From a virus, in IMG/VR virus record IMGVR_UViG_3300032294_002706, positions 65,693-129,692 of that record: a DNA stretch of 64,000 nucleotides; one strand, 5' to 3'. Below are positions 5,786 to 64,000 of the stretch, in pieces. The translations under genes were made by a program, and so were the position numbers. Position 1 is the first letter of the stretch; each line of letters starts with the position of its first letter. The notes beneath the pieces were generated by a model. It saw only the letters and a list, made by a program, of their open reading frames with translations, was not told the DNA's origin and did not search any database.

Positions 5786-7822
5786 GTGAAAACAGTATTA
5801 TTTACCTACTATGCCAATCCGGCACAAGACATTTTTCTAGAAAACGTTGAATCACTACTTAAAAATAGTGCATGTGAATATGACGAAATTGTTATTTGTT
5901 CTCAGATAGACGTACCAGTTAAAATAATAAAGGCCTTGTCAAAGCACGCAATAGTAAGCCGAGTTTTTCCGGATCACAATGCACAACAAGCAAAAAGATC
6001 ATCCAATCCAAATCGTTCTTATAAAGTCAGCCCATTCATGCTAACTGCTCTATCTTATAAGGAATCGATAGTTACTGTTTTTGATTCTCAGTTATTCGTG
6101 ATTAGCCCAATAGCTAATTATTCAGGCAATAATATCTTTTATAAGAACCACCGAGGAGCATTAATCACGCAGCTTTTTACAATCGTTAATACCGAATCAA
6201 CTGCCAATCTATTAATAAAGAGTTTAATTGACTGTGATTTCACAGATGATTCAACTAGCCATAAATTCACATTCATTATCGCAAACGCTGTACCGTTCAA
6301 TACTGCAACTATTTACGACAAGGCGTTCATATTCAGCGATCCTTCCGAGCATGATGTTATAAATGAGGATAAGCTAATTGCGTTTGACCTATCAGAGACA
6401 ATGACCTCGTCCATGATACATAAGCAGATGTGGGCCATTCGAAAAACCTACATTCCAAAAGTTTCAACCCTAACTAAAATTGCAAATCATGCAAATTCAA
6501 TAGTTTCAACGGCAGTCGCCGCGATTCAAGAGGTTGAAATGCCATTCACAAAGACCGGCAGTCATGATCCAGTAATATTATTCAAATACACTTCAAGGAG
6601 TCGACCTGATCAGTTTTATCGAGGTTTGATTAGTATCATCAATAAATGTTCAAGTCCAAACTATTTAATATTGTGTAGTTTCGATCATAACGATCCAGCA
6701 TTACCTACTTATTTAGAATACATCAAGGATTTGAATGATGACCGACTCACAGTCTGTTTAGGAGATAGTAAAAGCAAAATTGACGCAATAAATAGAGATA
6801 TTAATACATACGATAAGCATTGGGATATTGTTGTTAACATGTCAGACGATATGATTTTCACAAAGAATGGATTTGACTTAATAATAAAAAGCGATTTCAT
6901 TCAATACTTTCCAAAGTTTGATGGGGTAATGCACTATCCTGATCAAGATGCCGGCGAAAAATTAATGACTCTATCGATACTAGGTAGAAATTATTATCTT
7001 CGATTCAATTACATATACCATCCAGACTATTCATCTCTATGGTGTGATAACGAAGCAATGGAAGTATCAATAATGCTTGGAAAATATCGATACTCTTCGG
7101 TCCGAATGTTCGATCACATTCACCCAGCATACGGCCATTGTCAAACTGACGAGCAATATAAACACACTGAATCTTTTTACCACGCAGATAATGCGGTGTA
7201 CTTACAGAGAAAGGCTAGAGGTTTTAAATTAAAGTTTGCAATATTAATTGCAACAATTGAGACCCGAAAACCTCAGTTTGAAAAACTAAGAAGTTTCTTA
7301 CAATCTCAAATAGTTAAAAATTCTCTAGTTGGTCAATGCGAAATAGTCCACATTAGTGATAACAAGGAGATCTCAGTTGGATTAAAAAGACAACGCCTAT
7401 TGGAAATAGCCAATAGTAATTACGTTGCATTCATAGACGATGATGATTGGGTTAGCGATGATTACTTACCAATGATCATAAATTCAATAGATTCAAATTC
7501 ACCAGATTCAATTGGATTTTTAATTAGATGCACATTTGACAGATCTTCGCCAATCATGGCAAAAGCCTCAAACAAATATGCAGATTGGGCAGAAGACATT
7601 GACGGATACAAGTACGTTAGAACACCTTATCACAAAACTCCAATCAGGAGAGACCTCGCCATTCAAATAGGATTTAAAGACATTCGATATGCTGAAGATC
7701 ACGATTACAGTCGTAGATTAAAAGCTGCAGGTCTAATAAGAAAAGAAGATTTTATCGACTCTCCTCTCTACTATTATAGTTATGTACATGAGAATCCAAA
7801 TACAAAATACGGTTTAAAATAA
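5786..7822 (+). CDS. multidomain glycosyltransferase (GT-A/GT2-like domains)
   Basis: SRSRP, SKIDAIN, MSDD, and C-terminal FIDDDD, AEDHDYS motifs. Confidence 0.75.
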   Translation: MKTVLFTYYANPAQDIFLENVESLLKNSACEYDEIVICSQIDVPVKIIKALSKHAIVSRVFPDHNAQQAKRSSNPNRSYKVSPFMLTALSYKESIVTVFDSQLFVISPIANYSGNNIFYKNHRGALITQLFTIVNTESTANLLIKSLIDCDFTDDSTSHKFTFIIANAVPFNTATIYDKAFIFSDPSEHDVINEDKLIAFDLSETMTSSMIHKQMWAIRKTYIPKVSTLTKIANHANSIVSTAVAAIQEVEMPFTKTGSHDPVILFKYTSRSRPDQFYRGLISIINKCSSPNYLILCSFDHNDPALPTYLEYIKDLNDDRLTVCLGDSKSKIDAINRDINTYDKHWDIVVNMSDDMIFTKNGFDLIIKSDFIQYFPKFDGVMHYPDQDAGEKLMTLSILGRNYYLRFNYIYHPDYSSLWCDNEAMEVSIMLGKYRYSSVRMFDHIHPAYGHCQTDEQYKHTESFYHADNAVYLQRKARGFKLKFAILIATIETRKPQFEKLRSFLQSQIVKNSLVGQCEIVHISDNKEISVGLKRQRLLEIANSNYVAFIDDDDWVSDDYLPMIINSIDSNSPDSIGFLIRCTFDRSSPIMAKASNKYADWAEDIDGYKYVRTPYHKTPIRRDLAIQIGFKDIRYAEDHDYSRRLKAAGLIRKEDFIDSPLYYYSYVHENPNTKYGLK

Positions 7823-7825
7823 AAA

Positions 7826-8503
7826 ATGGAAGCAAGTAAAGTTAAAGTTTGCATACTAAATGCATCGAACGGAACAGGCTGGTATCCAGTAGGATCACAT
7901 AGACTTAAAAGATCATTAATCCATCATGGATATGCTCATGATCTTTTATTTTTCAATAATTGGCCAAACAATGAGTTTGATAAAATGTGTCCTTATAATA
8001 TAAAAGCAGCCGCCTTTGCTGAGGCCTTGAAGAAGGACTACGATATTATATTATGGGCAGATTGCTCGGTATGGGCAATTGACTATCCGTATCCGGTTCT
8101 AGACATAATAAATCATGACGGCTATTACTTTTGGAGATCTGGATATACATGCGATCAAACTTGTTCAGATGCATGCCTAGATTATTTTGGAGTCGACAGA
8201 GATACTGCCGAGACTTATCAAGATGTTTCAACTTCCCTATTTGGAATCCATACAAAAAACGAACTTGGAGCAAGATTCATTAATGAATGGCTACAGTCAG
8301 CAAAGGACGGCCAATTTAAAGGATCTAGAGAACACGACGGTCAGTCTAAAGATCCTAGATTTCTATTCCACCGCCAAGATCAATCATGTGCAAGCCTTAT
8401 CGCGAATAAGCTTGGGCTAAAGATTCACAATGAAGGCGATCACATTCAATATTACAAGAAAAAACAACCCGACAATCTCATATTCACAATGAGAGGTCTT
8501 TAA
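7826..8503 (+). CDS. putative glycosyltransferase
   Basis: ILWADCS and HRQDQS motifs; inside the glycosylation cluster. Confidence 0.6.
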   Translation: MEASKVKVCILNASNGTGWYPVGSHRLKRSLIHHGYAHDLLFFNNWPNNEFDKMCPYNIKAAAFAEALKKDYDIILWADCSVWAIDYPYPVLDIINHDGYYFWRSGYTCDQTCSDACLDYFGVDRDTAETYQDVSTSLFGIHTKNELGARFINEWLQSAKDGQFKGSREHDGQSKDPRFLFHRQDQSCASLIANKLGLKIHNEGDHIQYYKKKQPDNLIFTMRGL

Positions 8504-8516
8504 AAAACTCAAATTT

Positions 8517-9140
8517 ATGTATTCACAAAACGACGAAGAAACAATTCTTTTACAACACCTAACTTTACCAACTGGCACGTTGCTTGATATTGGAGCAAAT
8601 GACGGAAAAACTCTCTCAAATTCATTAGCTTTAATCGAAAGAGGCTGGTCTGCTGCCTTGGTTGAACCTGCCAAAATTCCATTTTCAAAATTAGTGGAGT
8701 TACATAAAGACAATCAAAATGTCCAGTGTATTAATTTAGCGATAGGAACTCAAATCGGCGAACTCAAATTTTACTCTAGCGGTACTCACCTGAAAGCCGG
8801 CGACACTGATCTTCTTTCAACTCTGTGTGAATCGGAATTGGATCGATGGGCCGGTACCGACAATGAATTTACTGAAGAGACAGTATCCGTTGTCGATTTT
8901 AAAACATTCTTAGACCATTCTAATTTCAAGAAATTCGATCTGGTCTTGATTGATGCAGAAGGCCTTGATTATGAGATTCTAACTCAGATCGACCTTAATC
9001 AAATTGAGTGTTCAATGATTGTGGTTGAGACGAACAGCAAGGATGATGCTAAGTACATCAAGTATTGTGAATCATTCGGTTTTAAACAAATTCATAAGAC
9101 TTACGAAAACTTAATTTTTTCAAAAAATCAAAATTCGTAA
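8517..9140 (+). CDS. FkbM-family methyltransferase
   Basis: YSQN, LDIGANDG, VEP, IDAEGLD. Confidence 0.9.
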   Translation: MYSQNDEETILLQHLTLPTGTLLDIGANDGKTLSNSLALIERGWSAALVEPAKIPFSKLVELHKDNQNVQCINLAIGTQIGELKFYSSGTHLKAGDTDLLSTLCESELDRWAGTDNEFTEETVSVVDFKTFLDHSNFKKFDLVLIDAEGLDYEILTQIDLNQIECSMIVVETNSKDDAKYIKYCESFGFKQIHKTYENLIFSKNQNS

Positions 9141-9923
9141 ATGGCTCACTTGGACATAACAGCCGGCACAGGCTTTTTTTCATGCTCAACTGAAGCTCTG
9201 TTAAATTTGGTAATTTACTCATCACTAAATGGGAGAATTCCAAATTCAATCGATCGTAGTAAACAATACGAGTATCATAAGAGCGATTCTATTACTGACC
9301 TGATTCCATATTACTTTGAAGAATCAGCTGAGCCTTTTGATGTCCCTCAAGGAGTTCAAATAAATTCAGACGGAGTCTATTCTCAATTCTGCGATTATCG
9401 AACGATCCAATTCGATGCAATGAAGGCCTACTTACTAAAGTACTTTCAGCCAAGTAAGAGAGTCAAGAATCGTGAGTCGGAGTTCATTCGTAATTACGAA
9501 ATTTCTCCTGAAAATACTTGCGCTATTTTCTATAGAGGAAACGATAAATCTAGAGAAACTACTATCGCCAACTACTCTGAATTTATTGCACAGGCTAAAA
9601 TAGTCAAAACTGAAAATCCGACAATTGAATTCCTAGTTCAAACTGACGAAACTGAATTTCTTGAACTATTTTTAAGAGAGTTCCCTGATGCTAAGTACAT
9701 ATCTGAAATTCCAAGAATTTCTAAGCAGGACAATTGGGTTACTCAAACTCTAAATAGAGATTCTCGTCCAGATTTCGGAGTAGACTTCTTTAGTTCAGTT
9801 TTAATACTCGCAAAGTGCAAATCTCTCATAACTCACTCCGGGAATTGCGGATTTTGGAGCGTTCTTTATAGAGGCTCGTTCGATGGAGTACGCCAATGGC
9901 AAAATGATCATTGGATAATTTAA
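9141..9923 (+). CDS. putative fucosyltransferase-like (NodZ/GT23-like) protein
   Basis: IFYRGNDK, VQTDE, LAKCKSLI..SGN motifs. Confidence 0.6.
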   Translation: MAHLDITAGTGFFSCSTEALLNLVIYSSLNGRIPNSIDRSKQYEYHKSDSITDLIPYYFEESAEPFDVPQGVQINSDGVYSQFCDYRTIQFDAMKAYLLKYFQPSKRVKNRESEFIRNYEISPENTCAIFYRGNDKSRETTIANYSEFIAQAKIVKTENPTIEFLVQTDETEFLELFLREFPDAKYISEIPRISKQDNWVTQTLNRDSRPDFGVDFFSSVLILAKCKSLITHSGNCGFWSVLYRGSFDGVRQWQNDHWII

Positions 9924-9936
9924 AAAATTTATTATT

Positions 9937-10788
9937 ATGAAATTAGCAGTAGGTTACGTAGTTTTTGATGGGCTTGAAACGCTAGAAGCCTCAATTCGAT
10001 CAATCCGAGAATGTGTTGATATTGTGATCGTCTCTTATCAGACGGTATCATGGGGAAATACTCAGTGTTCTCCATTGTTGGTGCCCACACTAGAGAGGCT
10101 CAAGGAGAATGGGCTAGTTGATGTAATAATGGAATTCACAAAATTCGTCCCATCATCTCTGACTAAACCAGACGATGTGATCCGCGCTAAAAAATACGAA
10201 TGTGATAAGAGACAGAGCTGTTTAGATAAAGCTCTTGAACTTGGAGCAACTCATTATACTTCAATGGACGCTGATGAGTTCTATATCAAGGAACAGTTTG
10301 AGGAGGCGAAACGCCAAATCATACAAGATAAGTTACAGGCAACTGCCGTTCGTTACATAAACTACTTGACTCCAACTCTACATCAGGGCTATTCTAAATT
10401 CAAGGTGCCTTTCATTTACGAGATTGGGCCAAACAGTCGACATCATGCACTACAGTTCATGTTCTCAGATATCGATCCAACTCGCGGAATCACCGATGAT
10501 TCGTACACCAGATCTAGAGTTTTTGAACGTGACTTGATAACGATGCATCACATGGAAATGGTTAGGGAAGACCTACTTGGAAAGTACCAAGCCTCAAGCC
10601 GATACTTTAGAAATAGACAGGACCTTCCAATCTTGGCTGAAGATATTATTCATGCCAAGAAAACCAAGGAACTTAAGTTTAGAGCAATTCATTTTGGTGA
10701 TTCGCTAAGCGGTTTAAATAAGGAATTAGTATTGACTGAATGCGAAGATCTTTTCGACTTACATTCCTACCGTTACGGTACCCGATAA
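9937..10788 (+). CDS. putative GT2-like glycosyltransferase
   Basis: SIRSIRECVD, ECDKR, MDADEFY. Confidence 0.65.
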   Translation: MKLAVGYVVFDGLETLEASIRSIRECVDIVIVSYQTVSWGNTQCSPLLVPTLERLKENGLVDVIMEFTKFVPSSLTKPDDVIRAKKYECDKRQSCLDKALELGATHYTSMDADEFYIKEQFEEAKRQIIQDKLQATAVRYINYLTPTLHQGYSKFKVPFIYEIGPNSRHHALQFMFSDIDPTRGITDDSYTRSRVFERDLITMHHMEMVREDLLGKYQASSRYFRNRQDLPILAEDIIHAKKTKELKFRAIHFGDSLSGLNKELVLTECEDLFDLHSYRYGTR

Positions 10789-11562
10789 TAATTTAGGTAA
10801 CATCGAAGTAACGTATGCGGAGTTTGCACCAGGTGTGCTTGGCATTTTGGCATCTATCGCTGATGCTAGGGTCACTAATATTTCAAATAAAGTATTTCCC
10901 ATTACTGCATGTTCAGCCTTTGCATTCGCGCCAATGTTAGTTAATTGACCGTTAACGTTTATTGTTTGTCCTTCTAGTGTTATTACGTTAGAAGTAACGT
11001 TCACTTGGGAAGAACTTTGCACGTTGATAACGTTGCCATCAAATTCCATTGAGGATAGTCCATCCTTATGATAAATTTCAATCTTTGAATTTTGATCAAT
11101 CGTCAAGTAGGAGTCCTTCATTTCAAAGGTCAGTCCTCTACCCTTAGTGAAGTATATTTTGATATGCTCATCTCCATCAAATAGAATATAGTGAGCTCCC
11201 TCATACTCATAATCCGTGCTGGACTGCAGAGCCTCCTTAATATCATCTCCGATCTCTTGGATTTGACCGTATTCTGGTGAATAGAGATTTCCATTATTAA
11301 AAACAACTTCAACTATTGAACCTTTCTTGGGAATTGAAATTGATCCAGCCTTTGCGTACTGTCCAAAGAAAGTCGGCTTTTTCATTTGTATTGCCCATGG
11401 AATATCTTCAACCTCTAAGTTATCAAATATGCTGAAAACTCTGACTCTACAGCGACCTTCTCTCAATGGGTCTTTTACATCAACTACTTCGCCCAAGTAC
11501 TTGGTAACAATTAATTCTGCACCGCTTTGATCTTTTACAATTTCATTATTTGAAGTTATCAT
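10759..11562 (-). CDS. baseplate hub/spike protein (gp5/VgrG OB-fold)
   Basis: GEVVDVKDPLREGRCRVRV...IPWA...IPKKGSIVEVVF; beta-helix-like C-terminus. Confidence 0.85.
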   Translation of the reverse strand: MITSNNEIVKDQSGAELIVTKYLGEVVDVKDPLREGRCRVRVFSIFDNLEVEDIPWAIQMKKPTFFGQYAKAGSISIPKKGSIVEVVFNNGNLYSPEYGQIQEIGDDIKEALQSSTDYEYEGAHYILFDGDEHIKIYFTKGRGLTFEMKDSYLTIDQNSKIEIYHKDGLSSMEFDGNVINVQSSSQVNVTSNVITLEGQTINVNGQLTNIGANAKAEHAVMGNTLFEILVTLASAIDAKMPSTPGANSAYVTSMLPKLLSGTVTVGM

Positions 11563-11569
11563 ATACTAA

Positions 11570-12679
11570 TTATGGGTAAACGTCTCCTAGGTCTCCGTCT
11601 TTAATTATTTTATTAGTGTCAGCTCCTGGGTAAACATCATCTCTAACGCCTTGACCTCCAGTCGGACCGACTGGTGATCGTCTTCCAAACAGTTGACTTG
11701 TTCCAAGAACTTCCGTACTTCTATTATACACATTTTGAGCTAACGCGGTTTCAAGGCCAGTCTGTAATTGATTAGTTAGGTCTCCAATGATCCTAGCGGG
11801 AAGTCTTGCTGCACTAGATAAGAACCTTTGTGCTCTACCCTCGAGTGAACTAGCAAGGCCCGAAAAAATACCCAGTGAATGGTAATCCGAGTCTGATGAC
11901 TCTTCTGATTCTTCTAAAACCCAACCGGCTCGTATCTTGAAAGACGTCGTGAACGGCTTATCCTCAGTGTATGCTTTGATTTCACTGCCACTAATTGCTC
12001 CTCCGAGTGTCTCTGAAAAATCAAATTCACATCTTTGTAGTCTGTACTTTATTTGATGTAGTCCGCTTGCTAAATTAGCCGAGCGATCGTTAATGTCCCT
12101 AATTTCAAATAAGGTAATTGTCATGTCAAAGGTTCTTAGGTTATCCGGTAGCGTGTAGCACATTTTATCCGAATCGTAAATTGCTCTACGATAGTATTCT
12201 GCGAACTTAAGTAGAGGTTGCTCAATTGAATCGATGCAGTTAATCGTAATTTCAGCTTTCTTATCACCTTCTTTCACTCTCATTGCTGCTTTCCATAGCT
12301 GATCAACTCCTTGAATTGATTGAAAGTACCATGGAGACTCTTGTAATTTTCTCAATTGGCTAATTGCTGCCCCCAAAAATAAGTCGTTTCGATTGGTCCA
12401 ACCTGAACCATACGTGATTAACCAATCTTGGGCAGACCATTCGACATTAATGTACTTTGAATTAATGTCAGTTCCCTTTCTAGCAGGTCTCAGTAAATTA
12501 TCCCAAAATAAACCGTCGCCGGTAGTTGAGGGTACAGTACTTATCCAATCACTGTCGGGGGTGGCTTGATTTGGAAAAAAATCAAGGTCGAACGTTAGAA
12601 AAATCGGGTCCTGTACATCGGATAGTGCACTCTTTACGAACTGTTTATAACGCTTAGGTCCATTTATTAATTGAGCCAT
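11570..12679 (-). CDS. putative tail tube-like/baseplate protein
   Basis: Position in baseplate block; tube-like ITINC..S, Y...IYD, FDMTI pattern. Confidence 0.45.
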   Translation of the reverse strand: MAQLINGPKRYKQFVKSALSDVQDPIFLTFDLDFFPNQATPDSDWISTVPSTTGDGLFWDNLLRPARKGTDINSKYINVEWSAQDWLITYGSGWTNRNDLFLGAAISQLRKLQESPWYFQSIQGVDQLWKAAMRVKEGDKKAEITINCIDSIEQPLLKFAEYYRRAIYDSDKMCYTLPDNLRTFDMTITLFEIRDINDRSANLASGLHQIKYRLQRCEFDFSETLGGAISGSEIKAYTEDKPFTTSFKIRAGWVLEESEESSDSDYHSLGIFSGLASSLEGRAQRFLSSAARLPARIIGDLTNQLQTGLETALAQNVYNRSTEVLGTSQLFGRRSPVGPTGGQGVRDDVYPGADTNKIIKDGDLGDVYP

Positions 12680-61863: not shown

Positions 61864-62046
61864 TTACTTCAATATCTTCACCTTTTTATAGTTATCCAGG
61901 ATATAAATCTTTGCTGCTTCAACCAGGGTTTTAATCTCGGTTGAAAATTCGATGCATAGAATCTCGAAGTTTCCCTCGTTATATTTTTTACCCTCCCTAA
62001 TTACGGAAAGAACTTCTTCTTCTCTCTTTGATATGTCTACTAGCAT
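61864..62046 (-). CDS. hypothetical protein
   Basis: 60-aa ORF with A-rich start context. Confidence 0.45.
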   Translation of the reverse strand: MLVDISKREEEVLSVIREGKKYNEGNFEILCIEFSTEIKTLVEAAKIYILDNYKKVKILK

Positions 62047-62103
62047 AGTTGATATTTTAATTGTTCTACCGCAATGCTAAGTAAAATTTTCGGGGTAAAA
62101 AAA

Positions 62104-62904
62104 TTAAATTGGAAGTTTTACCCTACTTAAAAGACTATTTGAGACGTGTGTGTAAATTTCTGTTGTTTTAGAGCTGGAATGACCTGCTATTTTTTGGATA
62201 ATTCTTAAATCAGTTCCTGATTCTAATAGGTTAGTGAAAGAGGAATGTCTTAGTGTATGTATTGATGACCCGTCATCAATGTATTTTTTATAAATTTGCT
62301 GACAGCTTCGTATTGAATACAATGAAGAATTTTGCCCATTAAAAAGATAATCTGAAGGTTTATACTCTTTAAAATATTCTCTTAGCAAAGTTAAAACAGT
62401 TAATGACAGCGGAACTATCCTATCCTTTCGACCCTTTGCATTTTTAATGTGAATTATCATTCGTTTGGAATCAATGTCCTCGATTTTTAAGTTTACGATT
62501 TCAGACACCCTTAGGCCAACCGAGTAGGTTAGAGTTAGTATAGCTCTGTGCTTAATGTTTTGTATTTTAGCAAGTTTGCTCTTAATAAACTCACCATCAA
62601 TTACCCTGGGCAGTTTCTTTTCCGATTTTGGTCTTTTAAACGATACCTTATCGTATTTCTTATCGAGTCCGTACTTATATAAAAACCTTATAGCGTTAAT
62701 CACTTGGTTCTGTTGAGAAACCGAAGTGAATTTATAGTTATCCAAATAAAATTGGAAATCTTTGGAACTACAATGAATTATCTGTTTGTCATTAAGTGTA
62801 TTAAGAAAATCCCTAATATGACACATATAATTGTCTTTTGTTCTTGGTGAGTAGTTTAAATATATAAACTTTTCCTCACAAATCTTTATAATTTTTTGAT
62901 TCAA
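62104..62904 (-). CDS. tyrosine recombinase (integron-integrase/XerD-like)
   Basis: YSPRT..Y, QNQVINAIRFLY, LPRVI, GLRVSE, KGRKDR, HTLRHS, GHSSSKTTEIYTHV. Confidence 0.9.
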   Translation of the reverse strand: MNQKIIKICEEKFIYLNYSPRTKDNYMCHIRDFLNTLNDKQIIHCSSKDFQFYLDNYKFTSVSQQNQVINAIRFLYKYGLDKKYDKVSFKRPKSEKKLPRVIDGEFIKSKLAKIQNIKHRAILTLTYSVGLRVSEIVNLKIEDIDSKRMIIHIKNAKGRKDRIVPLSLTVLTLLREYFKEYKPSDYLFNGQNSSLYSIRSCQQIYKKYIDDGSSIHTLRHSSFTNLLESGTDLRIIQKIAGHSSSKTTEIYTHVSNSLLSRVKLPI

Positions 62905-62934
62905 AGTATTGGTATTAAAGGGTTTAATCTATAC

Positions 62935-62964
62935 TTGTTTATATATGATAGTTATATGCAATGC
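62935..62964 (+). mobile_element. putative attI-like junction at the start of cassette 1
   Basis: G|TTATATGCAATGC at 62951, upstream of the divergent integrase; complementary to the cassette end at 63753-63766. Confidence 0.6.
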
Positions 62965-63032
62965 TACGTTTGTGCTTCGTATTAAGTTTCGTGGTTATAG
63001 TCTTTTTGTTTTATTTTTTTTCCAACCGCACA

Positions 63033-63638
63033 TTAATAAATTTGAAGAAAAGAAGAGTTTGGTACTACTGCTGATATTGAACCTTCATCTTCGCCAATAT
63101 TAGTGTAGAAGTATCCACTTTTCGCATTACCCATTTTTAAATTTCTTAACATCATACTATTTGCACGGTCATCACTATGTGGTGTATATGGAGTATTACT
63201 CATTCTACCCATTATTTCAACAGGAAATATTATTGGGCTTGAATTAAATGGTATTGGTGTTCTATCTGAATATACTGCTCTTGTTTTTCTATCTGTTGGG
63301 TAATAATCATCTTCTGGAATATCACTACCTGAATTATATCCTGTTGTCACATAATATCCACGCTTTTTTTCAATTTCTTTTAGCCTTTTTTTACCAGCAA
63401 TTAAAGTTTTACCATATTCTCTTGTACCATCCCACTCACCTTCGGATGGCACTCCAATACGTGCTTCTAATGCTTGTGTTGCAGCAAGTTTCGTTCCAAT
63501 GTGTATTCCATTTTTTCCTTCTAAATTTTTATCAGTTGAGCCGTGATAAAAAAGTCTACCAAAATTATATCCTTCTAATATTTGTTGCTCATTCAAATAT
63601 TCACGTATAGTAGTTGCTATAAATTTTCTTAATTCCAT
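63033..63638 (-). CDS. cassette gene: ADP-ribosyltransferase-like protein with head-targeting-like leader
   Basis: MELRKFIATTIREYLNE; FYHGS, GIHIG, GYFYTN..EDEGSIS; start set to ATG 63638. Confidence 0.55.
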   Translation of the reverse strand: MELRKFIATTIREYLNEQQILEGYNFGRLFYHGSTDKNLEGKNGIHIGTKLAATQALEARIGVPSEGEWDGTREYGKTLIAGKKRLKEIEKKRGYYVTTGYNSGSDIPEDDYYPTDRKTRAVYSDRTPIPFNSSPIIFPVEIMGRMSNTPYTPHSDDRANSMMLRNLKMGNAKSGYFYTNIGEDEGSISAVVPNSSFLQIY

Positions 63639-63752
63639 ATTATTAAATAGTTTTATTATATATATATATATATATTCAAATTTTAATTTTCCACCCACAA
63701 AAATAAAACAAAAAGGTTCTGTTCTTCGATTTAAGTTAATCTCTTAAAATCC

Positions 63753-63891
63753 GCACTGCATATAACAAGGTGTATATGTAATGGTGGGTTCATCTGTAAT
63801 TTCAACATTAGTGGTTTCTATATAGTTTTGTTATTAATTAAAGTTCATCTCTTTCTATCCACCACTACATATACACCCAACCGTTATGTGC
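63753..63891 (+). mobile_element. attC-like recombination site
   Basis: ATATAAC ... GGTGTATATGTAATGGTGG (63769-63787) / CCACCACTACATATACACC (63859-63877) ... GTTATGT. Confidence 0.75.
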
Positions 63892-63893
63892 CA

Positions 63894-64000
63894 TTAAGCA
63901 GACACCTCACGAATACCAACGACAACAGGGTTTTTAGGTGTTCCGTCATCAAAATAACCATCGTGTTCTATTTCGGCAATCTTTCTATCAGTCCAATTAC
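63894..64000 (-). CDS. 3' end of a gene in cassette 2 (truncated by window)
   Basis: ...NWTDRKIAEIEHDGYFDDGTPKNPVVVGIREVSA*. Confidence 0.5.
   Translation of the reverse strand, partial: NWTDRKIAEIEHDGYFDDGTPKNPVVVGIREVSA

Follow-up and report, generated by a model that had tools for sequence, protein, structure and literature searches.

Recombinase, docking site and first cassette at the window end

The window analysed here is a stretch of 64,000 nt that makes up the final 64 kb of a 129,692-bp viral contig (IMG/VR record IMGVR_UViG_3300032294_002706), and position 64000 of the window is the contig end. In its last 2 kb, a gene for a tyrosine recombinase is adjoined by an attI-like docking site, one complete gene cassette and the start of a second, and this end of the window is very probably the recombinase-proximal end of a phage integron-like gene-cassette system. 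The source contig was rated 48% complete by CheckV. Phage genes recognised on it code for the major head protein, the protease of head maturation, the portal, the DNA polymerase and a helicase, and they are located inside the window. By its gene set the phage, a large one from a lake, is T4-like and of the virulent type. The features of the locus are listed below.

62104-62904, minus strand: tyrosine recombinase, 266 amino acids (aa), TTG start
62934-62954, minus strand: attI-like docking site, reading on the recombinase strand TAAC and, after the breakpoint, TATCATATATAAACAAG
62952-63883, minus strand: cassette 1, a complete unit of 932 bp with 3' module (62952-63018), cargo gene, 5' leader and hairpin site; its start at 62952 reads TTATATGC
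62951-62964 and 63753-63766: outer R arms, GTTATATGCAATGC and GCACTGCATATAAC, 13/14 complementary
63002-63018: inner inverted repeat, arm 1, CTTTTTGTTTTATTTTT, pairing perfectly over 17 nt with arm 2
63699-63715: inner inverted repeat, arm 2
63033-63641, minus strand: cargo gene 1, 202 aa from the ATG at 63641, with the N-terminal leader helix MELRKFIATTIREYLNEQ and then a conserved core
63769-63787 and 63859-63877: L arms, GGTGTATATGTAATGGTGG and CCACCACTACATATACACC, 18/19 complementary, with 71 nt between
63753-63896, minus strand: attC-like hairpin site of cassette 1, composed of R arm, AA, L arm, 71-nt loop, L arm, CAACC, and R arm from GTTA at 63883
63884-64000, minus strand: start of cassette 2, cut by the contig end, with the last 34 codons of a gene, ..IAEIEHDGYFDDGTPKNPVVVGIREVSA, and its stop at 63894-63896

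A preliminary description of this DNA, made from its letters alone, had placed a tyrosine recombinase transcribed away from a site at 62951, which agrees with the 266-aa open reading frame (ORF) on the minus strand at 62104-62904. The complementarity of the R arms (13/14) and of the L arms (18/19) and the GTTATGT from 63883 were confirmed, as were the two spacers of unequal length, 2 nt (AA) on one side and 5 nt (CAACC) on the other, an inequality that was found family-wide. Both neighbouring ORFs had also been said to face the recombinase, and both the ORF at 63033-63641 and the ORF stopping at 63894-63896 do lie on the minus strand. The second R arm of the hairpin at 63753-63896, from GTTA at 63883, is part of cassette 2. 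The R-arm mismatch in the window, A62961 opposite C63756 on the plus strand and T opposite G on the other strand, is the mismatch found throughout the family (see below). Upon search of the 64 kb for the 14-mer of the R arm with 0 or 1 mismatch, only these two places were found.

Within the outer arms, the inner 17-nt repeat brackets cargo gene 1, each of its arms being located 37 nt inside the corresponding outer arm. The two 37-nt stretches have in common a repeat (AACTTAA..CGAAG.ACA at 62971-62988 and 63720-63737), which is direct and not inverted. The inner repeat module is kept in two of the related loci described below (L104 and L063), and copies of the 3' module are conserved in other cassettes, including those of L063 and L104 and many cassette ends. 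In the leader of cargo gene 1 (63654-63675), TA is repeated about 11 times in a (TA)n run, which in the L104 copy of the cassette is shorter by five bases. Comparison of the hairpin with Rfam gave chance-level matches only, mir-548 (23.9 bits against a cut-off of 90) and TMV_UPD-PK3, and inspection of the cassette-1 leader by eye revealed no promoter motif of Bacteroidota type or sigma-70 type with proper spacing.

The recombinase is composed of the Pfam domains Phage_int_SAM_4 and Phage_integrase, and the motifs that usually bear the catalytic residues are all present (GLR at 130-132, KGRKDR at 157-162, HTLRH at 216-220, GHS at 241-243 and IYTH at 250-253). Against the NCBIfam models it scored 176.1 bits for XerA_Arch (cut-off 220), 145.5 bits for the integron integrase TIGR02249 (cut-off 265), 140.6 bits for XerC (cut-off 335) and 139.9 bits for XerD (cut-off 330), and against PRK15417 it scored 96 bits (cut-off 435); TIGR02249 and PRK15417 each matched in two pieces, and none of these five curated family cut-offs was passed. 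The best PDB relative was the XerA-like 4a8e (5.6e-33). The alignment with Vibrio IntI4 (2a3v) was also in two pieces and left 79 chain residues (181-259) opposite 31 query residues (178-208), and the IntI insertion is therefore missing from the recombinase. The absence of this IntI-specific insertion had been suspected before, and both the TIGR02249 score below its cut-off and the gap in the 2a3v alignment bear it out. Judged from these comparisons, the enzyme is a small Xer/IntI-like tyrosine recombinase. In the GenBank collection of isolated phages, no protein more than 40% identical to it was found, and its cellular relatives were at most 50% identical over most of the length, apart from one 184-residue fragment on a 2-kb contig (66%).

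Docking sites and cassette arrays of related loci

A total of 202 relatives of the recombinase were identified in viral contigs, and 80 of these loci (57-98% identical, on contigs of up to 362 kb) were studied. Hairpin sites were collected by a strict scan, which required TAAC at one end and GTTA at the other, a spacer of 2-6 nt after TAAC and of 0-3 nt before GTTA, and between the spacers a loop enclosed by a stem of 12 bp or more. The stretch between the ends of successive TAAC cores was taken as one cassette, and the R arms were not used in site detection. The public sequencing data consisted of assembled contigs from 20 runs.

In all 80 loci, homology breaks at the end of TAAC, 46 nt upstream of the recombinase gene, the sequence being conserved on the recombinase side and unrelated beyond it. 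AAC followed by the conserved TAT.ATATATA was present in 80 of 81 sequences (the 80 loci and the window), and the conservation per position, 0.76-0.97 on the side of the recombinase, was down to 0.35-0.5 within a few bases past TAAC. Seen in alignment, this pattern looks like a docking site filled with different inserts. Four different first cassettes were carried by the window and the loci L020, L002 and L003, the recombinases of which are at least 89% identical. From the same comparison, the crossover is placed inside or at the edge of TAAC/GTTA (62951-62954). A finer placement between G and TT (62951 and 62952) would rest on the analogy with integrons, as the invariant core blocks finer placing by comparison. 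Short palindromes, GTTAT-nnnn-TCGTTTTAATG-n'n'n'n'-ATAAC, were also observed immediately at the docking site of L003 (5936-5964) and at the same place in L011, L013 and L043. Their four variable bases change in step (GGCA/TGCC, AAAA/TTTT, GTTC/GAAC), and the palindromes may represent cassette ends that are minimal or carry no gene.

In X1, the probable source run of the window, a backbone contig of 9652 bases (depth 14.4) that carries the recombinase stops at 62956, having entered the cassette by five bases. From 62956 another contig of this run continues with other letters, a different cassette start that has only six letters in common with L002. The contig of cassette 1 has a depth of 8.98. 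In another lake sample (X2), the continuation after 62955 is the exact L003 form. These continuations are assembly-graph facts taken from contigs, and they fit a variable first cassette without proving recombination; gaps in cover at 63096-63515 in runs X2, X4 and X5 are uninformative. As to cassette 2, a peptide of 32 aa that is 62.5% identical to its product belongs to the first cassette of L017 and ends right in front of attI. The X1 contig over the cassette-2 end (window 63879-64000) has a depth of 31.5 against 14.4 for the backbone, with several alternative continuations at 63871-63895, and cassette 2 seems to be present in more than one context in the X1 community.

The guanine-plus-cytosine (GC) content falls from about 0.40 to 0.31 across the last 2 kb of the window, where the contig stops (0.31 at 62001-64000 versus about 0.39-0.44 in the flanking phage DNA), and one could suppose that the recombinase is a lysogeny integrase at a prophage or assembly boundary, the AT-rich DNA beyond it being host DNA or a chimeric join. 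However, the same join of recombinase and backbone is present in an independent 180-kb viral contig (G001, locus L003), in which the five genes downstream of the recombinase are found in the same order: a 60-aa ORF (98% identical), a 244-aa ORF (96%), a 67-aa ORF (96%), a 106-aa ORF (81%) and a helicase (92%). The stretch 62050-62110, for which the preliminary description had asked about read continuity, is continuous, being crossed by contigs of four runs from four studies. Based on this gene order and these contigs, a chimeric join to host DNA was rejected. Furthermore, the array of this relative ends after about 7 kb and phage DNA continues for 41 kb; the arrays of relatives are likewise somewhat more AT-rich than their phage flanks (GC 0.291 versus 0.309, lower in 26 of 37 loci); and the closest cellular relatives of the recombinase are, as noted above, no more than 50% identical except for the one fragment. 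A boundary of this kind has hardly any probability.

Upstream of the recombinase genes, the strict scan identified 304 sites on the recombinase strand and only one on the opposite strand (322.5 kb), and downstream of the recombinase genes two plus five (423.6 kb). Among the loci with a full 6-kb flank, 45 of 46 have at least one site (median 4.5, maximum 12). G001/L003, the closest relative with a fully covered array (recombinase 89-90% identical), carries 16 sites in about 7 kb, and the expectation that further att-like sites follow the first was thus realised in this relative. Over the 41 kb beyond, there were no sites on the array strand and two on the other strand. This array stops after about 7 kb, and the arrays are therefore finite.

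A typical site reads ..AT-n6-TAAC, a 5-nt spacer (often GGTTG), a stem (median 18 bp), a loop, the stem partner, a 1-2-nt spacer (T or TT) and GTTA-n6-GT... The consensus of 261 non-redundant sites was aATTgcnnATAAC-GgTTg...T-GTTAT..gtaGT, in which the spacer was 5 nt on one side in 171 sites and 1 or 2 nt on the other in 230. The inner lengths of the hairpins cluster at about 40, 70-80 and 110-120 nt. No bulged bases were found in the gapless stems scanned, bulges deeper in the stems being outside the search, and to this extent the initial impression that the window site has no obvious extrahelical base applies to the scanned sites of the whole family.

The pairing of cassette ends was examined in 260 non-redundant cassettes. 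Between the 10 nt that follow GTTA and the 10 nt that precede TAAC at the far end of the same cassette, 7.05 of 10 positions paired, as compared with 3.55 for the adjacent arm and 3.45 for random arms; the own end paired better than the neighbour in 224 cassettes, equally in 15 and worse in 21. The most frequent score was 9, and 10 was never reached. Among 147 well-paired cassettes, the mismatch was located exactly 7 nt from the core in 145, and was T opposite G in 142. Since the arms were not used for finding the sites, the own-end pairing is an independent test.

Single cassettes were also found in different surroundings. Positions 586-1542 of L005 and 2637-3593 of L023 are identical at 955 of 956 positions, with flanks at 43% and 41%, and this cassette adjoins attI in L023 and another cassette in L005. 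In a second shared-cassette pair, 266 of 273 positions are identical and the flanks are at 38% and 36%. Cassette 1 of the window is held by L104 in its entirety, including hairpin, leader, gene and 3' module, at an internal position of the array. The homology starts right after ..GAC, with GGTTGGG, and ends exactly at the end of ..GCATATAAC; beyond this end, the window enters attI and L104 enters another hairpin site. The limits of homology are exactly the predicted crossover points.

It may be asked whether the hairpins are regulatory promoter or terminator stem-loops located between early genes and the shuffling is due to homologous or illegitimate recombination, as proposed for the PeSL elements of T4-type phages, the recombinase having another job such as dimer resolution. 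PeSLs combine a promoter with a terminator in a conserved sequence and are supposed to recombine by homology. The window phage is a large one with a T4-like gene set, and the start codon of the next gene lies inside 98 of the 207 longer hairpins, so that hairpins do sit in expression signals; PeSL-mediated shuffling has been described for T4-type phages, as far as the available text of two reports goes (PMC2839356, PMC4122927). With 150 distinct 12-mers in 260 sites, however, the L arms vary too much for an exchange driven by homology; the breakpoints lie at a single fixed point at the end of TAAC, and the sites are located almost only beside the recombinase gene and in one orientation. A circular intermediate accounts for the pairing of a cassette start with the far end of the same cassette, 300-1200 bp away, whereas an exchange between adjacent hairpins does not. 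Altogether, we regard shuffling of the PeSL type as improbable.

A tyrosine recombinase that adjoins a gene flanked by inverted repeats (13/14 and 17/17) also recalls an inverton, in which the recombinase would flip the gene between 62951-62964 and 63753-63766. In its favour, contigs of relatives often break within 1200 nt of the recombinase gene on the array side (in 21 of 80 loci, whereas only five of the 80 have such a break on the opposite side). Against such flipping, one gene orientation prevails in 166 of 174 cassettes, the sites are 304 versus one by strand, relatives differ by the presence, absence or position of whole units and not by inversion, and no inverted form was found among the public-run contigs compared. 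The inverton is thus considered very improbable.

Several points weigh against an integron-like cassette system at this locus. The evidence for recombination comes from assembled contigs and is indirect. When the whole 129,692-bp contig was scanned under the strict conditions, the only site found was that at 63753-63896, and each of 10 random Markov genomes gave 0 or 1 strict site, two of the 10 having one; a single complete site per 130 kb is therefore not rare by chance. The stems of the scanned sites were 90% paired, but the strict scan selects paired stems, and this fraction of 0.90 is not independent evidence. In 21 of the 260 cassettes the own end pairs worse than the neighbour, although some of these are probably due to sites missed by the scan, for example the TGAC variant in L104. 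The enzyme falls below all the curated cut-offs, and by its sequence an Xer-like housekeeping role may be considered. In addition, it is without the region of the I2 helix; because this insertion is credited with recombination of single strands, the action of the enzyme on a folded site is something we can only infer. The evidence inside the contig is by itself suggestive, and comparison with the sequences of relatives lifts the case far above chance. The break at the docking site in 80 of 80 loci, the 304 versus 8 sites, the own-end pairing and the shared cassettes with exact breakpoints altogether sustain what the preliminary description had proposed, a non-canonical phage-borne system for the capture and shuffling of genes.

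Hairpin sites of the same build were also found near cellular relatives of the recombinase (41-50% identical): L159 (Flavobacterium cheonanense contig) at 7983-10276, L200 (Desulfitobacterium chromosome) at 7791-12152, and L131, L133 (Nitrospirae metagenome-assembled genome). In these cellular loci the sites are found on the downstream side of the recombinase gene and are oriented the other way (37 antisense and 3 sense in 585 kb), and several of them have own-end pairing of 12-13/14. The system or a sister of it is therefore present in bacterial chromosomes too, with another layout. Among cultured phages, the Polaribacter phages Freya_1 to Freya_10 (MT732463-MT732472), ten isolates of one phage with lengths from 43,978 to 48,920 bp, encode an integrase 36% identical to the window recombinase, the distance of which from the start of the record varies from 83 to 4180 bases. 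The motif ATTGTTGCTAACACCC.ATAAC was found 5' of the integrase in Freya and in Cellulophaga phage Ingeline (L123, L124). Freya_10 and Ingeline_1 were not counted as members, as no convincing hairpin array was detected in them by strict and relaxed scans.

Genes carried by the cassettes

In 166 of 174 well-defined cassettes, the longest ORF is on the recombinase strand and points toward the recombinase. The cassette ORF has a median length of 84 aa; about 85 nt of the cassette precede its start and about 14 nt follow its stop, and in 98 of the 207 longer hairpins an internal ATG opens a frame of at least 50 codons. The cargo is diverse, with 171 ORFs falling into 162 clusters. Among 116 ORFs of at least 75 aa, only about 10 matched Pfam, to 11 families each in one to three ORFs; these include three N6/N4 DNA methylases, an RNA ligase with OB domain and an Rv2179c-like exoribonuclease. 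We infer that the cargo probably consists of diverse accessory proteins for host takeover or counter-defence.

For cargo gene 1, the preliminary description had suggested a phage head protein. No Pfam, PHROG or NCBIfam family was found for its product, and its 334 relatives are all without a name. An alignment of 28 sequences indicated that H32 (in FYHGS), S124 and D184 are invariant and that Y123 and E183 are conserved at 90% or more. The AlphaFold2 model has a mean pLDDT of 87. Upon comparison by VIA-align, most of the 48 rows were proteins of the ADP-ribosyltransferase (ART) fold (NatT, RES, ParT, MbcT, the catalytic domain of diphtheria toxin, and PARPs), with weak scores, the best being a Z of 5.1, and the Foldseek search of PDB gave nothing at E <= 0.001. 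The invariant and nearly invariant residues fit such an enzyme, in which NAD is bound by an H-Y-E or an R-S-E set, and H32, Y123 and E183 may be an H-Y-E set. From the model, the core of cargo 1 is probably an ART-type fold, to be taken as a lead and not as a finding. The head protein was rejected, given that no family matched and that the model resembles ART-fold enzymes, if at weak scores; the N-terminal leader alone recalls phage leaders, being similar to those on many proteins of the window phage. In 33 of 35 other loci with members of the cargo-1 family, no hairpin site was found within 6 kb. The gene is therefore an ordinary phage gene that was captured as a cassette in the window and L104.

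Cassette proteins that are otherwise unrelated have N-terminal leaders in common (ORFs of L003, L005, L007, L026, L035, L038, L062, L066 and others). A hairpin-encoded leader ..LNISDV(R/S)S.. was found in 27 of 164 N-termini, the L arm and GTTA being read as codons, and in these cases the recombination site therefore doubles as coding sequence for a common leader. The leader MSKEMR..I..F.. was found in 10 of 164, and MELRKFI.TTI.EYLNE in 3 of 164 and in cargo 1. Enrichment of a capsid-targeting-like leader, [ILV]xx[FY]xx[FYW]x1-5E, was rejected as too weak: it was found in 9 of 164 N-termini, against 3.1 +/- 1.8 (maximum 9) in shuffled sequences and 6 of 136 at residues 36-70.

Proposed pathway and comparison with known systems

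In the pathway proposed here, the recombinase would act at the fixed docking site by its own gene and at the hairpin sites that begin each cassette, with strand exchange inside or beside the invariant TAAC/GTTA. Excision would give a circle in which 63883 is joined to 62952, and the cassette end AT-n6-TAAC would pair with its own start GTTA-n6'-GT, so that a 12-bp R duplex made of these two ends would adjoin the L stem in the circle. A new cassette inserted at the docking site would come to lie beside the recombinase gene. What the enzyme recognises is probably a folded site, either single-stranded or cruciform; such a site is the likely substrate because the arm sequences vary freely while the pairing is kept, and a replicating T4-like phage could be a plentiful source of single-stranded DNA. 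The T.G mismatch and the unequal spacers (about 5 versus 1-2 nt) might determine the polarity of the site, as bulged bases do in attC, and are likely marks of polarity because they are the only constant asymmetries. Each cassette would supply one small gene pointing toward the recombinase, about half of these genes starting inside the hairpin.

It is possible, although we stop short of calling it probable, that a second integron-type lineage is represented, one that uses folded hairpins without an I2 helix and takes polarity from the T.G mismatch and the spacers. Virulent phages of freshwater Bacteroidota would use it to trade small genes for host takeover and counter-defence, here an ART-fold enzyme with a cleavable-looking leader. 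Related arrays would reside in bacterial chromosomes, and the system may be near the ancestral state of bacterial integrons.

Integrons are regarded as a bacterial device defined by IntI. If the proposed system is real, cassette capture by a different and smaller recombinase takes place in virulent phages, this mode of gene trading is wider than thought, and phages have gained a site-specific route for swapping accessory genes between lineages. With such a system, nature would also have supplied a test of the requirement for the I2 helix and for bulged bases in the recombination of folded DNA. In the available text of two reports, the I2 helix insertion is held to be an IntI innovation that enables single-strand recombination (PMC7790495, PMC4792948), and it is because the literature treats I2 in this way that an I2-less enzyme tied to hairpin arrays bears on the question. 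The arrays would then be a catalogue of small phage proteins of unknown function kept mobile by selection, promising for host-takeover and counter-defence activities, and the Freya phages would be a culturable model if the region there is a related cassette region.

A cassette system that is encoded by a phage and is not of the IntI type was not found described in the literature searched, which did not extend to supplementary files or to journals on subscription. The nearest report (Qi et al. 2023, PMC9892861), as far as its available text shows, describes attC-type sites and cassettes in virulent phages, among them a phage of Polaribacter and a myovirus whose host is unknown. The 17 phage CALINs of that text are clusters of at least two attC identified by the bacterial models of IntegronFinder, and they were tested with the bacterial IntI1. 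Common to these CALINs (PMC9892861) and the present system, by the same text, are attC-type sites in virulent phages and DNA methyltransferases in the cargo. By their description there, the CALINs (PMC9892861) have no phage recombinase of their own, whereas the present system has its own non-IntI recombinase and docking site and hundreds of members.

The PeSLs of T4-type phages are similar in that small accessory genes in plastic regions are bounded by stem-loops and shuffled between relatives, according to the accessible parts of the two reports (PMC2839356, PMC4122927). The present system differs from them in its unconserved arms, its single fixed breakpoint, and the recombinase and docking site that are adjacent in 80 of 80 loci. 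To our knowledge, PeSLs have no dedicated recombinase.

The Xer recombinases (archaeal XerA, 4a8e and 5hxy; XerC/XerD) are the best relatives in sequence and structure, and the phage enzyme is likewise small, two-domain and without an extra insertion. It differs from them in scoring below the XerA, XerC and XerD cut-offs, in being phage-encoded, and in its tie to hairpin arrays and a docking site instead of a 28-bp dif site; the Xer-dependent modules include pdif modules.

In comparison with integrons, the phage enzyme is without the IntI insertion and below the cut-offs of the IntI models, the core is TAAC/GTTA, and the R arms are of 12 bp (AT-n6-TAAC). The phage stems are without bulged bases (the deeper stem was not searched), and a fixed T.G mismatch and spacers of about 5 versus 1-2 nt are found instead. 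The cassette genes are co-directional with the recombinase, are read toward it and often start inside the hairpin, and the replicon is a phage of the virulent type. Judged by gene direction, the divergent arrangement of integrons, in which promoterless cassettes are read from a common promoter at attI/intI, was not found, the genes of 166 of 174 cassettes facing the recombinase. Of the integron hallmarks compared, three were thus absent (IntI membership, bulged bases, and the divergent promoterless organisation) and four structural ones present, among them imperfect palindromes with AAC...GTT cores in the window site and the 261 sites. As in classical integrons, the recombinase gene is located by the docking site with an oriented array of one-gene cassettes behind it, the sites are imperfect palindromes of outer R and inner L pairs with AAC...GTT cores, and the start of a cassette is complementary to its own end. 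As in sedentary chromosomal integrons, which have long arrays of small unknown genes, the cargo is extremely diverse and mostly unknown, and new cassettes are located by the docking site.

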